Under the pieces are notes generated by a model. The model was given only the letters and a program-made list of their open reading frames with translations, made no database searches and was not told the DNA's origin. Below are positions 1 to 4,515 of a stretch of 64,000 nucleotides of DNA, piece after piece; positions within the stretch are counted from its first letter, which is position 1; the number at the start of each line of letters is the position of its first letter. Source of the stretch: Bacteroidaceae bacterium (GTDB lineage Bacteria > Bacteroidota > Bacteroidia > Bacteroidales > Paludibacteraceae); contig CAVEIE010000009.1 of assembly GCA_963615895.1 (NCBI GenBank), positions 1,455 to 65,454 of the forward strand. Direction: 5' to 3'. The translations under genes and the position numbers were made by a program.

Positions 1-909
1 TATCAATATACGCTCAATACGCATGAGATTCTGTCTGAATCTCTGTATTACTATCCTTCTTCGCGCCGTGCCAAAGTTTTTGAGCGCAAAGCCGGTGAGA
101 AGAAATACACTTTCGGCTCTAAACTGCTGTTGCGTCCTAAAGAGATAGCCGATAGTTTGCTCTACAACAATCTCTATCTCTCTCGTGCATCTGCTATGAA
201 TCGTGAGTTGGCAATCCAAGTCTATGATTTCTTCCTGCACGATTTTATGCTCGACCTCTTCCCAGCGCAAAACGACTATGTGCGGGCGGCTTTCATCAAC
301 TATAAACCACTCATCTTGAAAGCGTTGGCTATTTGTGATAGCGATATAAGCAATATCGAACTGCGCCTCAAAGATGTTCTTCAGCCCGTACAAGTCATGC
401 AACCCAATGGCGAACCTACTATCACCCTTTTGCCCACCAAGGAACCGGTCTTCAAGACCTACCACAAGCAAAACCCGAAGTTGCAATTCGATATGGAAAC
501 CGAGGAGTCCGAAGGCACCAAACGTTTGTTCCAAATTGTACTGCGTTTTATTGATATAATCCGCAATGGCAAATCGCTGATGCTTGACGAGTTCGACCGG
601 CAACTCCACGTCCGTCTTGCTGATTTTATCATCGATATGGTGCACGCCACTCCGCATTCGCAGATGCTCTTCACTTCCCATAATACCAACCTTATTGATA
701 TGAAGCGCTTCCGCAAAGACCAGATTCTCTTCGTCAATAAGCGCAAAGATGGCTCTACCGAGGTGTACTCGCTCTATGATTTCAAAGATTTCCGAGAAAA
801 CATGGATGCCGAGAAGGGCTATTTGCAAGGACGTTTCGATGCGGTACCTGCAATTTCTGCATCTACGGCTGTTCTCAAATCGTTTTTAGGGGAGGTGCAA
901 CATGAGTAA
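1..909 (+). CDS. ABC/AAA-type ATPase, C-terminal part (N-terminus outside the window); RloA/AbiLi-like partner of the next gene
   Basis: Frame 1 has no stop from nt 1, so the caller's TTG at 130 is not the real start. It has a Walker-B-like LMLDEFD and a downstream FTSHN signature typical of AAA_21/ABC-fold defence ATPases. It overlaps the next ORF by 8 nt. Confidence 0.65.
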   Translation, partial: YQYTLNTHEILSESLYYYPSSRRAKVFERKAGEKKYTFGSKLLLRPKEIADSLLYNNLYLSRASAMNRELAIQVYDFFLHDFMLDLFPAQNDYVRAAFINYKPLILKALAICDSDISNIELRLKDVLQPVQVMQPNGEPTITLLPTKEPVFKTYHKQNPKLQFDMETEESEGTKRLFQIVLRFIDIIRNGKSLMLDEFDRQLHVRLADFIIDMVHATPHSQMLFTSHNTNLIDMKRFRKDQILFVNKRKDGSTEVYSLYDFKDFRENMDAEKGYLQGRFDAVPAISASTAVLKSFLGEVQHE

Positions 910-1477
910 CCGGCGACGACAACAAGCGCCCTCTCGTAAGATGAAAGAGGTCTTCCTCATCTTTTGCGAGGGGCAAACCGAAGAAGCATATATTGATATG
1001 TTACGCCGCTACTTCCGTGCGCCCATACGTATTGTGTCTTCTGTCCAGGGTCAATCTGTCTCCAAACATCTGATTGACGAATACAAACGCTCTATGCAAC
1101 TCAGCCCTTCCGACCGTGTCTCCACGTTCTTGATGTACGATTTGGATGTTGCGGAACTCCTGCCACGTTTGCAAAAATGCGATGCCGAGTTGCTGGTGTC
1201 CAATCCCACTATTGAACTCTGGTTCCTTTTGCACTCTGCCGACCAGCGCGCGGCTATCGCGTCCAAGTACGTTACGCATGCCTTGCAGCAGTCTGCACCG
1301 GAATGGCGCAACTATCACAAAGGAATGTTCACCGACCGACAGACACGACTATTGCAAAACAATATGTCTGCTGCCGTCAAACGTGCTACGCTGCTCACCG
1401 ACCTCGCCAACCCGTCGTCGCGTATCTACCTGCTCGTCCAACGGTTGCAAGCGGAATCATGTAAACAAACTTCATAA
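902..1477 (+). CDS. RloB-like (Toprim-like) protein
   Basis: The N-terminal FLIFCEGQTEEAYI matches the CEGxxTE signature of RloB-domain proteins. It is translationally coupled to the upstream ATPase, as in AbiLi/AbiLii and RloA/RloB pairs. Confidence 0.6.
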   Translation: MSNRRRQQAPSRKMKEVFLIFCEGQTEEAYIDMLRRYFRAPIRIVSSVQGQSVSKHLIDEYKRSMQLSPSDRVSTFLMYDLDVAELLPRLQKCDAELLVSNPTIELWFLLHSADQRAAIASKYVTHALQQSAPEWRNYHKGMFTDRQTRLLQNNMSAAVKRATLLTDLANPSSRIYLLVQRLQAESCKQTS

Positions 1478-1560
1478 ACAAACCTTCGCTATGCCATTAC
1501 AACGTAAACCTGACTATACTAACCTTCCAACCTCACCGATGCTTAGGTCAATCGTCTCTG

Positions 1561-1645
1561 CGCCTATGATTGTCTGAACCCCTCGCAGCCACGCGCTGCC
1601 ATGAGGAACGTGTCCCGGGTGCACACGTTCGACCTTGCACCCCGA
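1561..1645 (+). repeat. Conserved structured element, copy A (candidate cis-regulatory or small RNA)
   Basis: It aligns with 2878-2962. Hairpin GCAGC/GCTGC lies at 1585-1599. Hairpin GAACGTGT/ACACGTTC lies at 1606-1613/1623-1630. Loop GGGTGC (1617-1622) is complementary to GCACCC (1637-1642). Confidence 0.45.
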
Positions 1646-1777
1646 AACAACAGTCTGTTGATTATTGAGGTATATATCACATACCAATAGTCATTGCTAT
1701 TAAACCTTTTTGAGGTGGCTATTGAAATACAATACGTTCATTTTCAGCAAACAACTATGATTATTTTTTTTGTTTTC

Positions 1778-2029
1778 AACCCTTCTCGGCTGGATATACA
1801 CAACCGATATTTTACTATGGCATACATAGTACCCATGACGCACTTCGACACAATAAGTGGGAAGTACGCAAAAACAGATAGAGTGTACACGCGTGTACGC
1901 AAGTTTGATAATCGTACAATAGGCGTTGCCTTGAAGAATCCTGTCACCAACGACCCTCCCACAGAAGGGCAACAAACAGCACAGCAAAAGTTTGTAACGG
2001 TGCAAAACAAAGTGAAGACCATTCTATCC
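1778..2029 (+). repeat. 252-nt direct repeat, copy A
   Basis: It differs from 3084-3335 at 4 positions by eye, all in the first ~75 nt. Identity ends abruptly at 2029/2030. Confidence 0.9.
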
Positions 2030-2065
2030 ACTGCAAGTTTTTGTACGATATTGTGCTATAATTAA
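1817..2065 (+). CDS. Small basic protein, paralog copy 1 with a replaced 3' end (possible pseudogene)
   Basis: The start MAYIVPMTHFDTISGKYAK is shared with the 3123 gene. The first 71 codons are near-identical to copy 2, followed by an unrelated 11-codon tail. Confidence 0.4.
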   Translation: MAYIVPMTHFDTISGKYAKTDRVYTRVRKFDNRTIGVALKNPVTNDPPTEGQQTAQQKFVTVQNKVKTILSTASFCTILCYN

Positions 2066-2324
2066 CAACAAATGACGACTAAAAAGATGCAGTTATGTAT
2101 ACCTACAGCCATTTTAGCGATGCCCCTATGCATTCTCTCACTTTCGATCGAATAGATGCCGTTCCGTCGGCTTTAGTGCCTTTCCACGAAGCTATTCCCT
2201 CTATGCCTACTGCGTTCCGCGCAGTAGCCCACTTCTTTGTTGCCAATAGTATGTTCTTGCTACCTCCCGAATCCAATGCAAGACGGATAGTTGGCAAACT
2301 ATCATCCAATTTGATTAATCTTTA

Positions 2325-2714
2325 ATGTATAGAATTATGAATAACGAAAATCAACAGGCATTGGATAATGCCAACGACCCGGTTATAGGTCGCGACTTAT
2401 TGGGCAATCCCTTCAATAAGAAGTACCCGCCCGACACCGTCAAGTACGGAACCAACTATGATGGCTATCCCTCGTACAATCGTGAGGCCTTTTTTCTCGA
2501 TTTTGCTATTGAGGGGTACGATGTCTTGTTTGCCTACAATGGCAAGAACTATCTTGTTCAGCGTTGGGCAGAGGGGGCAGTACAACTCGACCCTGTTTCG
2601 CACCAACTCATTCGCCTTTTCGACAATGCCAATGTCTTAGTAGAGCAACTCGATGTTGAGGGCGCAAAACTGATCGACCGTATCGACCAAATTCAAATTA
2701 TAGAATTATTGTAA
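2325..2714 (+). CDS. Hypothetical 129-aa protein (unique insert between the two repeat copies)
   Basis: Clean ORF with ordinary composition and no motif I recognise. An alternative start is the second ATG at 2334 (MNNENQQ). Confidence 0.45.
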   Translation: MYRIMNNENQQALDNANDPVIGRDLLGNPFNKKYPPDTVKYGTNYDGYPSYNREAFFLDFAIEGYDVLFAYNGKNYLVQRWAEGAVQLDPVSHQLIRLFDNANVLVEQLDVEGAKLIDRIDQIQIIELL

Positions 2715-2877
2715 TCGCCACACTATCATTTGTGGAAAGATGGTCGCCAACTTCCGGACGCTTATCCTCTTACTCCCGAAATGCGTCACCTTTTGGACTA
2801 TGTGCGCAATGTCGGAGAATAATTTGACTATCCACCTTAACTATGCAAAATACACCCACCTGTAAAAACCCATTTCC

Positions 2878-2962
2878 CGCCTATGATTGTCTAATCGCCC
2901 TCGCAGTCACGCGCTGCCTATAGGGAACATGCCGGGGTGCGCATGTTCGACCTCGCCCCCAA
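2878..2962 (+). repeat. Conserved structured element, copy B
   Basis: Hairpin GAACATGC/GCATGTTC (2925-2932/2941-2948) keeps pairing through two compensatory changes relative to copy A. Hairpin GCAGT/GCTGC (2903-2917) keeps pairing only through a G-U pair on the + strand. Confidence 0.45.
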
Positions 2963-3083
2963 ACACTTTTTTTATACTGGTCTGTTGTCAATAAGGTATT
3001 TATACAATAAGGCACTTGTTGCCAAAAACCTAAACACATAAGTATGAAAATCTTTGTTTTCAACGACCTTAACTAAATCTTAT

Positions 3084-3335
3084 AACCCTTCTCGGCTGGA
3101 TATACACAACCGATATTTTACTATGGCACACATAGTACCTATGACGCACTTCGATACGATAAGTGGGAAGTACGCAAAAACAGATAGAGTGTACACGCGT
3201 GTACGCAAGTTTGATAATCGTACAATAGGCGTTGCCTTGAAGAATCCTGTCACCAACGACCCTCCCACAGAAGGGCAACAAACAGCACAGCAAAAGTTTG
3301 TAACGGTGCAAAACAAAGTGAAGACCATTCTATCC
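3084..3335 (+). repeat. 252-nt direct repeat, copy B
   Basis: Near-identical to 1778-2029. Confidence 0.9.
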
Positions 3336-3437
3336 GATGCTTCACAAAGAGCAGAATATGTGCTTAAATGGAAAAACCAAACCAAGTGCAAAACGCTGCG
3401 GGGCTTTGTATTCTCACAAGAATACAATAAACCTTAA
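3123..3437 (+). CDS. Small basic protein (104 aa), intact paralog
   Basis: ATG at 3123 (MAHIVPMTHFDTISGKYAK...). It is homologous along its full length to the 3517 gene, sharing SGK, NP, TE..Q...F, L.D.SQ and TLR.FV positions. Confidence 0.55.
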   Translation: MAHIVPMTHFDTISGKYAKTDRVYTRVRKFDNRTIGVALKNPVTNDPPTEGQQTAQQKFVTVQNKVKTILSDASQRAEYVLKWKNQTKCKTLRGFVFSQEYNKP

Positions 3438-3516
3438 TCTATAACCGGGTTCGGAGGTGTATGCGCTGCCAAAAGCAACGCATACACCCACTAACCCAAA
3501 ACAAATAATAAACCAC

Positions 3517-3852
3517 ATGGCTCAAGTAACATACATCGACCCTATTGCCACACTGAGCGGCAAGATAGTCAAACGGCACAAAACCATCTATTTGGTGAGG
3601 CAGGCAGCAACGGCCAACCCTGTAATGTTGGAGAACCCCTGTTTCACCACCTCACTCAGCAAACGCCGCACAGAACTCACCGAAGCCGAGCAGGAGCATC
3701 GCACACATTTCGGTGCTGTCTGCAAGGCAACCGCTGCCCGCCTGCAAGACCCCTCGCAGTCCCGTACCGACGCAATAGCCTTCAAGGCGCAGCAAGAGTA
3801 TACCACCCTCCGACAGTTTGTCTGGCACCAAGTCGAGAAAGACATCTCTTGA
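3517..3852 (+). CDS. Small basic protein (111 aa), divergent paralog
   Basis: MAQVTYIDPIATLSGKIVK... aligns with the 3123 protein at the conserved positions. It lies in tandem on the same strand. Confidence 0.55.
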   Translation: MAQVTYIDPIATLSGKIVKRHKTIYLVRQAATANPVMLENPCFTTSLSKRRTELTEAEQEHRTHFGAVCKATAARLQDPSQSRTDAIAFKAQQEYTTLRQFVWHQVEKDIS

Positions 3853-3927
3853 CAACTTGCCCGACACCTCCCCGTCGAAGGTCTGCATATACAAGTCTGT
3901 TTATACAAATTGTGTAACATCTCTTTT

Positions 3928-3965
3928 GCGCCCCAAAGCCCCACGCTTTGGGGCGCATTTCTTTC
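3928..3965 (+). terminator. Rho-independent terminator
   Basis: GCGCCCCAAAG / CTTTGGGGCGC is an 11-bp stem (3928-3956), followed by ATTTCTTTC. Confidence 0.7.
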
Positions 3966-4124: not shown

Positions 4125-4198
4125 GGCCCCGTAGCTTAGTTGAATAGAGTGTCAGATTCCGGTTCTGAAGGTCCTGGGTTTGAGTCCCAGCGGGGTCA
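4125..4198 (+). tRNA. tRNA-Arg (anticodon CCG)
   Basis: Acceptor GGCCCCG/CGGGGTC, anticodon arm TCAGA-TTCCGGT-TCTGA, and T-arm CTGGG-TTTGAGT-CCCAG. Confidence 0.9.
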
Positions 4199-4356: not shown

Positions 4357-4430
4357 GCGCTCCCTCAAGGACTTGAACCTTGGACCCCCTGATTAACAGT
4401 CAGATGCTCTAACCGACTGAGCTAAGGAAG
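4357..4430 (-). tRNA. tRNA-Asn (anticodon GTT)
   Basis: The reverse complement reads GCTTCCTTAGCTCAGTCGGTTAGAGC...CTGACTGTTAATCAG...GGTTCAAGTCC...AGGGAGCG. The anticodon loop is CTGTTAA. Confidence 0.9.
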
Positions 4431-4515
4431 CATCGCAAACCACTTAATAGAATGAGAGATTGTGTCCCCTCGAAATTTGCGTTGCAAAGGTAGAGGTTTT
4501 TCACAAAAAAAACAA

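Follow-up and report, generated by a model that had tools for sequence, protein, structure and literature searches.

Near the start of a 64,000-nucleotide (nt) stretch of contig CAVEIE010000009.1 from a Bacteroidaceae bacterium (the window, meaning this stretch at its full length), an element of about 85 nt occurs twice beside a pair of defence genes, which raises the question of what the element is and which genes it belongs with. A first-pass annotation had called it a cis-regulatory leader or small RNA of no named family, a description that the fold, the transcript and the absence of an Rfam match reported below support. We consider it very probable that the element is a selected RNA structure, and on balance we favour the view that it is a cis-acting leader element of sbB-sbC, an operon for small basic proteins that lies downstream of it.

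The two copies, A at 1561-1645 and B at 2878-2962, align along their length, as the first-pass annotation had them; they are about 80% identical and three 1-nt indels apart (BLAST: 82% identity over 88-91 nt, with gapless segments 76-86% identical). The 2.2 Mb genome carries these two copies in all. Each copy forms a hairpin in which helix P1 encloses helix P2, followed by an H-type pseudoknot in which the loop of helix P3 pairs with the tail:

Copy A, 1581-1584 with 1603-1606, + strand: P1, CCTC/GAGG.
Copy A, 1585-1589 with 1595-1599, + strand: P2, GCAGC/GCTGC around a CACGC loop, with CAT between P2 and the 3' arm of P1.
Copy A, 1607-1612 with 1624-1629, + strand: P3, AACGTG/CACGTT.
Copy A, 1617-1623 with 1636-1642, + strand: loop-tail helix, GGGTGCA pairing with TGCACCC.
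Copy A overall, + strand: P1/P2 hairpin at 1581-1606, then H-type pseudoknot at 1607-1642.
Copy B, 2898-2901 with 2922-2925, + strand: P1, CCCT/AGGG, in a register one base off that of copy A.
Copy B, 2903-2907 with 2913-2917, + strand: P2, GCAGT/GCTGC around CACGC, with C before P2 and CTAT before AGGG.
Copy B, 2926-2931 with 2942-2947, + strand: P3, AACATG/CATGTT.
Copy B, 2935-2941 with 2954-2960, + strand: loop-tail helix, GGGTGCG pairing with CGCCCCC, with one T.C mismatch.
Copy B overall, + strand: P1/P2 hairpin at 2898-2925, then H-type pseudoknot at 2926-2960.

Folded as single sequences, the copies reach energies no better than those of shuffles (z -0.4 to +1.3); two copies alone therefore prove nothing, and the proof comes from 23 further copies in relatives. 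The resulting alignment of 25 copies (A9, an earlier version of which covered 23) was fitted by hand, with indels placed in loops only, gaps written as N to hold the register, and the pseudoknot written into the structure for the pair counts. In A9, 94.6% of 518 cells pair, compared with 74.1% in shuffled controls, none of which reaches the observed value in 500 trials (a count and not a probability, since the aligned sequences are related), and with 25-48% in controls with slid partners. Of the 21 pairs, 16 change on both sides, as do 112 cells. The paired fraction is 97% in P1 and 99% in P3, with both-sided changes at all four pairs of the former and covariation at four of the six pairs of the latter; P2 is 100% paired and changes from C:G to U:A at one pair; and the pseudoknot helix, 86% paired, has both-sided changes at all seven of its pairs. 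RNAalifold, run on an unfitted alignment of nine copies, recovered P2 and P3 independently. Both the fold and its conservation are thus matters of observation.

The individual variants illustrate how the stems are kept by compensatory change rather than broken in the homologs. In P1, GCCT:AGGC and TGCC:GGCA are independent two-sided changes, and in P2 GCAG/CTGC becomes GTAG/CTAC in divergent copies. P3 occurs as AACGTG/CACGTT, AACATG/CATGTT, GACATG/CATGTC, CGTATG/CATACG, CCTATG/CATAGG and CGATG/CATCG, and the pseudoknot helix as GGGTGCA:TGCACCC, GGGTGCG:CGCACCC, GAAGAGTA:TGCTCTTC, TGACTCG:TGAGTCA, CGCTTG:CAAGCG and GCTTA:TAAGC. The pairings listed in the first-pass annotation are present in both copies, including its closing helix (CCTC/GAGG versus CCCT/AGGG, i.e. 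P1), and the pseudoknot that it proposed between hairpin loop and downstream tract is borne out by the alignment. Its main hairpin is right as a fold, with the first G of "GAAC" shared between P1 and that hairpin; of the two changes there that it took as compensatory, the T:A to C:G change fails, since four relatives have C.A at this position. The 3' base of the position covaries with the downstream tail (A9 columns 67/82: GC 12, AU 10, GU 3). With the P3 loop paired 3' of P3 and both stems supported by covariation, the 3' half is an H-type pseudoknot of compact geometry (stem 1 of 6 bp, loop 1 of 2-4 nt, stem 2 of 5-8 bp, zero linker, loop 3 of 5-8 nt). Loops L1 and L3 and the P2-P1 junction are variable in A9, and the only conserved unpaired positions are those of a mini-ORF (open reading frame) and of the P2 pentaloop, YMCGM.

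The mini-ORF lies at the 5' end of the element, where the conserved motif GCCTATGATTGTMTAA reads ATG-NNN-NNN-stop in 26 of 26 copies, its stop (TAA in 20, TGA in 4, TAG in 2) falling 3 nt before P1 in the window copies:

Copy A, 1566-1577, + strand: mini-ORF ATG ATT GTC TGA (Met-Ile-Val-stop).
Copy B, 2883-2894, + strand: mini-ORF ATG ATT GTC TAA, of the same pattern.

The peptide would be MIV in 14 copies and MIA in four, followed by MLA, MNV, MLV and MTV. Codons 2-3 are wholly replaced in three loci, L039 (MYT), L040 (MVF) and L081 (MKH), the last in spite of an insertion, and synonymous changes occur as well (GTC/GTA and GCA/GCC/GCT). Only 0.3 TGG codons are expected under independence, and the chance of L081 keeping the stop at codon 4 is about 3/64. 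Judged from the sequences, this pattern suggests a conserved mini-ORF, and we regard it as suggestive rather than decisive. We have also considered TATGATTG as a -7 box, for which the consensus in Bacteroidetes is TAnnTTTG, with the transcript starting at P1; this candidate was rejected because T8 and G9, which would be the free "nn" positions, are invariant, because three lineages lose TTG yet keep ATG-N6-stop, and because the canonical boxes sit further upstream.

To which genes does the element belong? The order of features around the two copies is as follows:

1-909, + strand: AbiLi, C-terminal part (PADLOC 4e-73; Pfam AAA_21).
902-1477, + strand: AbiLii/RloB (PADLOC AbiLii 3e-20; Pfam RloB).
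1527-1560, + strand: conserved block P0 (AACCTCACCGATGCTTAGGTCAATCGTCTCT), found 5' of copy A but not of copy B.
1817-2065, + strand: sbA', a truncated copy of sbB, with codons 1-74 97% identical to the sbB protein and an unrelated tail thereafter (tblastn).
2095-2325, + strand: orf76, in the second cargo unit, 5' of copy B.
2337-2714, + strand: orf125, in the same unit, 5' of copy B.
3123-3437, + strand: sbB, a small basic protein of 104 aa, whose gene is always linked to the element.
3517-3852, + strand: sbC, an sbB paralog of 111 aa, with a terminator-like hairpin 3' of it at 3927-3957.
4125-4198, + strand: tRNA-Arg(CCG), just downstream of the sb operon.
4358-4431, - strand: tRNA-Asn(GTT), likewise just downstream.

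Wherever the flank is long enough (21 of 21 loci), sbB begins on the same strand 83-473 nt 3' of the element, usually followed by sbC; this linkage and orientation are fixed. What lies upstream varies: AbiLi/AbiLii, another AAA ATPase, orf76/orf125, unrelated ORFs, or nothing. Since the upstream genes vary while sbB downstream is invariant, the element belongs with sbB-sbC. The association with the defence pair that the first-pass annotation had noticed is incidental, and a link to the AbiL pair was rejected, as other genes replace this pair in other genomes; AbiLi/AbiLii (1-1477) is variable cargo 5' of copy A, outside the unit of the element. Protein coding across the element was likewise rejected, given the three 1-nt indels that separate types A and B. 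The distance from each copy to its sb gene, earlier put at 170-240 nt, measures 171 and 160 nt from copy end to start codon. The longest spacer, the 473 nt of G177, contains 3-4 copies of a repeat of about 30 nt resembling TTTAATGGTCATTTAATCGCAATTAACGGAGG (L038:1700-1990) that is not found in other loci. About half of the sbB orthologs have other types of leader, without the element; in some relatives (L051:2083-2826, L023:7091-7834, and L057) a gene for a 247-aa protein of the sigma-70 family, with regions 2, 3 and 4, lies directly 5' of sbB on the same strand, in the place of the distal element.

The distribution is narrow. At least 25 of 267 genomes in the genus carry the element, as against none in the 32 further genera of the family that were sampled. 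Searching with a covariance model derived from nine copies, with matches taken down to 25 bits, gave 22 of the 267; further copies were recognized beside sbB orthologs in G519 and G428 and, by eye, in L081 (genome G511), where the element carries an insertion. There is one copy per genome in 24 of the 25 carriers, the genome of the window being the one with two. BLAST against 401 genomes of the family found the element in this genus only, and a broader model, R2, matched 11 of the 401, in one of 33 genera, with none outside the genus. A pattern scan of metagenomes with GCCTATGATTGTNTAA returned only chance matches and G177's own contig, phage and plasmid collections gave no match, and the source labels on related proteins are Paludibacteraceae metagenome-assembled genomes. 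The Rfam comparison that the first-pass annotation had proposed yielded no family: Rfam 15 has no match at E<=10 in window positions 1500-3500, and none at E<=1 to the element or leader in the loci of nine relatives. We found no described family that matches; the element is a novel RNA motif, though of a kind familiar in general terms, and its distribution is narrow.

The first-pass annotation had assigned the element to the + strand on the ground that the GCAGC/GCAGT difference gives G-U on that strand and A-C on the other. This argument is invalid, as the position varies independently of its partner (columns 32/38 of alignment A7: C-A 9, U-A 8, C-G 4, U-G 2) and carries no strand information. 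In the pseudoknot core, all five wobble cells are G.U on the + strand. The assignment to the + strand is supported by the position of the promoter, the co-orientation with sbB, and RNA contigs. In the cargo-less genomes G366 and G519, a canonical -7 box, gcagTACCTTTGca, stands 49 nt upstream of the element on the same strand. Between box and element in the cargo-less loci lies P0, with a promoter box TACCTTTG about 20 nt upstream of it; P0, which in relatives is a palindrome (ACGATTG..CGTAATCGT), is common to type-A loci, L041-43, L044-49, L079 and L081, and is conserved in sequence without covariation. As for RNA, a pig-gut metatranscriptome (X42) contains a 949-nt contig of depth 27.5 from a strain about 97% identical to L081, which covers L081 1138-2087 and thereby includes sbC', sbB and the start-proximal pseudoknot as well as the element (1965-2052) and P0; its far end is about 275 nt 5' of the sbB ATG, and that of a 340-nt contig of an L081-like strain in X40 about 290 nt 5' of it. 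Both ends lie beside a TAnnnTTTG-like box. As these contigs span the element into sbB, the element is co-transcribed with sbB in at least one strain; other strains may show processing, attenuation or a second start site. A position of the element between promoter and ORF is consistent both with these contigs and with the position of the box in G366 and G519.

Several observations weigh against the reading of the element as a functional leader with a mini-ORF. The alignment is a manual fit to the structure, and the slip in P1 between CCTC:GAGG and CCCT:AGGG is a chosen register. The unpaired loops are poorly conserved, with no ligand pocket evident. The pairs are almost all of the Watson-Crick type, and the wobbles overall, 7 G.U versus 23 A.C, do not favour the + strand; of the A.C cells, nine are at the position that varies independently of its partner and six at a helix end in one clade. 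By Bacteroidetes standards the mini-ORF starts in a poor context, with C at -3; its stop in L081 lies 13 nt from P1, not 3. A good TAnnTTTG box is found between element and sbB in L032, L033 and L034. At the G366 locus, seven RNA-seq runs cover sbB-sbC and stop 32-80 nt upstream of the ATG, the element being covered only by X39, a run of uncertain library type; in some strains, therefore, mature sbB mRNA may begin only after the element. Finally, the RNA data come from relatives only, as undirected assembled contigs that show presence, not absence. RNA runs were found neither for the species of the window nor for G308, the runs that hold the window sequence are of unspecified type and have flat depth, and G362 and G519 are not present in the pig-gut runs.

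With these points in mind, we infer for the element a regulatory role with the following outline, in which translation of the mini-ORF and the direction of regulation are likewise conjectural. The element would be a folded domain of a + strand RNA within the 5' leader, of about 250-330 nt, of the sbB-sbC operon, ordered as a three-codon mini-ORF, 3 nt, P1 enclosing P2, and then directly the H-type pseudoknot, and it would affect sbB-sbC expression in cis. Termination on the mini-ORF would place a ribosome over P1/P2 and open this hairpin, and either translation of the mini-ORF or a protein bound to the fold would change the conformation, stability or read-through of the leader. The basic sb proteins themselves are candidates for such a protein, by analogy with the leaders of T4 gene 32, S15 and S4. 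That the element works specifically by coupling to the mini-ORF is a tentative proposal, which we hold with distinctly less assurance than the cis-acting role as such.

The duplication in the window calls for a separate explanation. Between 1778-2034 and 3084-3340, the two units of the sb repeat share 98% identity, but the two elements only about 80%; moreover, the counterparts of copy A are the type A elements in G356 and G302, and that of copy B is the type B element in G236. It follows that the tandem is a polymorphic merger of two cargo alleles and not a duplication of the element itself. The arrangement is polymorphic in public runs: in X4, a contig of depth 14 passes from 1769 straight to 3084, so that orf76/orf125/element B are missing and the order is AbiL-elementA-sbB-sbC, a contig in X6 joins 1579 to 2898 within a 9-nt identity of the two elements, and one in X1 returns from 3140 to 1835, the library type of all three runs being not known. 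The pair orf76/orf125, which has no family match in Pfam, NCBIfam or PADLOC, also precedes the type-B element in G236, G291 and G390. No tRNA was found in the fetched flanks of seven other carriers examined, and hence the locus is not tied to a fixed chromosomal site.

The surroundings look like a promoter-proximal cargo slot, in which a divergent resolvase gene and a TAATTTTG box are followed by variable cargo and then by the leader and sbB-sbC, the cargo always lying between promoter and conserved leader. It ends exactly at P0 and, in type B, at the mini-ORF motif. On the contig of the window, a serine recombinase of the resolvase family (PF00239) is encoded on the - strand at L013:70-759, about 700 nt upstream of the window start, and the TAATTTTG box is at L013:971-978; the cargo here is AbiL, then orf76/orf125 (window 1-2714). 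The recombinase gene is also present in G236 and G356, and none was seen in 13 other extended loci. Repeats resembling CCCCTAAT (L013:780-860) occur between the recombinase gene and the AbiLi promoter region of this contig, and C-rich short tandem repeats lie between cargo and leader in L033 (about 1371-1440; CCCCTTA about eight times; genome G302) and also in L032 (G356). It is tantalizing to consider mini-ORF, hairpin and pseudoknot together as a translation-sensing RNA switch undescribed in Bacteroidota, whose leader is also the right-hand border of a slot for defence cassettes: ribosome occupancy of the three-codon ORF would set the fold of the long leader governing the multi-copy sb family, and this leader would be the fixed right border of the promoter-proximal slot that takes up AbiL and other defence cassettes time and again. 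This combined proposal is speculative, and we think it rather improbable.

The main rival to a cis-acting leader is a separate small RNA of about 90-130 nt that would act in trans or sequester a protein, and would arise either from its own upstream promoter with termination after the pseudoknot or by being cut from the leader or from the 3' end of a cargo transcript. A run of T 3' of the element in about half of the loci (winB, L030, L031, L034-36, L038 and L040) is what such termination could use, some loci have a -7 box between element and sbB, and one X42 contig of an L081-like strain enters the element from the 5' side and stops after 11 nt of it. The seven G366 runs point the same way, as a leader of 32-80 nt with the element region missing is what size-selected libraries would yield for a short separate RNA. 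However, the X42 and X40 contigs pass through the element into sbB unbroken, type-A copies, including copy A of the window, have no T-run and no terminator found by the scan, and the strict co-orientation and proximity to sbB in every genome are more typical of a cis element. We therefore consider a small RNA unlikely, although a serious competitor to the cis-acting leader. The same T-run, as a possible terminator, together with the compact pseudoknotted fold in a 5' leader, could suggest a metabolite-sensing riboswitch of the pseudoknot type controlling sbB-sbC, but here the freely varying L1, L3 and P2-P1 junction leave no conserved pocket, the downstream genes encode small basic proteins, not enzymes or transporters, the distribution is confined to part of one genus, and no Rfam riboswitch matches, all of which make it very unlikely.

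Readings at the level of DNA fare no better. The inverted repeats could be protein half-sites or single-strand DNA folds, as in integron attC, that serve the neighbouring resolvase-type recombinase as a recombination site or cassette boundary; the exact end of variable cargo at the 5' edge of the conserved block, the divergent resolvase-family gene upstream of the cargo (in G000, G236 and G356), the copy 3' of each of the two cargo units in the window, the almost exclusively Watson-Crick pairs, and the population variants that join repeats (1769 to 3084 and 1579 to 2898) all fit this view. On the other hand, there are no arrays but single copies in 24 of 25 carriers, the recombinase is found in only 3 of 16 extended loci, interleaved repeats with four covarying helices are unlike the binding sites of dimers, the sequence varies while the structure is kept, and the region is transcribed; the variant joints fall in the sb repeat or in the 9-nt identity and are explained by homologous exchange between alleles. 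We give a DNA site as little credence as a riboswitch. That the element has no function, being a neutral passenger of a duplicated segment or the end of a miniature inverted-repeat transposable element (MITE) or insertion sequence (IS), can draw on the duplication in the window being itself a by-product of the merger; yet 16 of 21 pairs show compensatory changes among genomes with sbB proteins of only 50-78% identity, the element is single-copy per genome and fixed in position relative to sbB, and phage and plasmid collections contain no match, all of which render it barely credible. The possibility of an IS or MITE end had been raised in the first-pass annotation; the genome has just the two copies, and terminal inverted repeats or target duplications were not noticed in the alignments, though no dedicated search was made. 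A type III toxin-antitoxin RNA of the ToxI kind was rejected, as there is a single unit per locus and no tandem array, the two window copies lying 1.3 kb apart with genes between.

Among the closest known systems are the autoregulatory leader pseudoknots of small nucleic-acid-binding proteins, such as those of T4 gene 32 mRNA, rpsO/S15 and alpha-operon/S4 of E. coli. The likeness consists in an H-type pseudoknot in the 5' leader of genes for small basic proteins, and extends to a second pseudoknot of the relatives, 5-15 nt from the start codon; unlike these leaders, the element lies 83-473 nt from the start codon and has no sequence or Rfam relationship to them, and the sb proteins are without a recognized RNA-binding domain, RNA binding by sbB/sbC being hypothetical. 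With the leader-peptide attenuators of ermC, cat and cmlA, and with two- or three-codon minigenes such as lambda bar, the element shares a very short ORF immediately 5' of a stable leader structure, so that a ribosome on the ORF must melt the first helix; a conserved short leader ORF, predicted from the ATG-N6-stop pattern, would place it in this company. As differences, this ORF has only three sense codons and a weak ATG context, Bacteroidetes lack Shine-Dalgarno-led initiation, and no conserved alternative pairing linking the mini-ORF to the sbB start or to a terminator was seen by inspection of the alignments. The stems of 6 and 5-8 bp with zero linker and a third loop of 5-8 nt resemble the compact preQ1-II/III, SAM-II and fluoride aptamers, from which the element differs in having no Rfam match, no conserved loops and no association with metabolic genes. 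Like integron attC, it is a structured repeat 3' of variable cassettes, downstream of a promoter and with a divergent recombinase gene, in which structure is kept more than sequence; unlike attC, it is accompanied, in a minority of loci, by a serine and not a tyrosine recombinase, occurs as one element per genome, has a pseudoknotted fold, is transcribed with the downstream gene, and, in an alignment that was not put through a pattern scan, shows no recognizable R/L core sites.

The leader has further features. In the window they are the following:

1648-1690, + strand: mid-leader after copy A (CAGTCTGTTG ... GAGGTAT), weakly conserved.
2961-2975, + strand: AAACAC and seven T directly 3' of copy B, not called a terminator in the consensus scan.
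1780-1816, + strand: start-proximal leader of sbA', which looks internally deleted relative to the second pseudoknot of the relatives (110 nt upstream of sbB, 25 loci).
3086-3122, + strand: start-proximal leader of sbB, a remnant of the second pseudoknot that looks internally deleted.

CAGYCTGTTR and AAGGTA recur 3' of the element in most loci; none of the type-A loci has the T-run there. The second H-type pseudoknot, found in the relatives (L031:1660-1775, L039:1650-1757, L046:1680-1734 and others), reaches to within 5-15 nt of the start codon of sbB; it covaries independently and has G.U pairs on the + strand, which indicates that sbB leaders are RNA-structured. Its type alpha reads CCCCT-CGGGTGTGCTA-AGGGG ... 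inserted hairpin CATACC/GGTATG ... CACACCC, with stem variants CCTCT/AGAGG and CCCCC/GGGGG, and its type beta CTTCCG-ACCCCGAAG-CGGAAG-TAAAGAAAT-CTTCGGG, with loop-tail variants CCCAGAG:CTCTGGG, CCCAAGG:CCTTGGG, CCTGAAG:CTTCAGG and CCTGGAG:CTCTGGG (two G.U pairs). This second pseudoknot also occurs in sb loci without the distal element (L022, L024 and L057) and has no Rfam match. In the mid-leader, a conserved GCYRTTAAACCTAAA block occupies the equivalent position in all leaders (L046 about 1640-1665; window about 1700-1712 and 3018-3030). It coincides with the place, 32-80 nt before the ATG, where RNA contigs end at the locus of G366, and adapter read-through marks one of these ends, at L096:4568; the block could be a processing site or a second start site.

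The sb proteins themselves form a large family, with matches in 231 of the 267 genomes of the genus (up to 16 per genome, often in adjacent pairs) and, among the 1.8 billion proteins of one library, at least 225 clusters at the 50% identity level; the genome of the window has further copies at C4:52840-53518, C6:72191-72694, C32:4596-5355, C3:135684-135938 and C4:80167-80505. They have no Pfam, NCBIfam or PADLOC match, apart from a sub-threshold match of one paralog to DUF6266 (E 0.06), and for sbB a profile search of the PDB and Foldseek were uninformative as to function. Its AlphaFold model (pLDDT 65) has three confident C-terminal helices and an N-terminal half that is of low confidence or unmodelled. 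TAnnTTTG promoters are likewise found at other sb paralogs, whose leaders measure 100-300 nt and in some cases contain short tandem repeats (GATAAGCAGAA three times, ACGGTAGATAC five times).

Although the element occurs only in some members of a single uncultured gut genus of Bacteroidales, it adds a well-supported class of structured RNA, with a pseudoknot backed by covariation, to a phylum whose post-transcriptional control is poorly mapped. It also provides a handle on the sb proteins, an unannotated family often present in several copies, the leaders of which are all long and structured. Initiation in Bacteroidetes is not led by the Shine-Dalgarno sequence, and in a phylum that selects its start sites without such pairing, a three-codon ORF placed before a fold would offer a simple hypothesis of ribosome-coupled switching.

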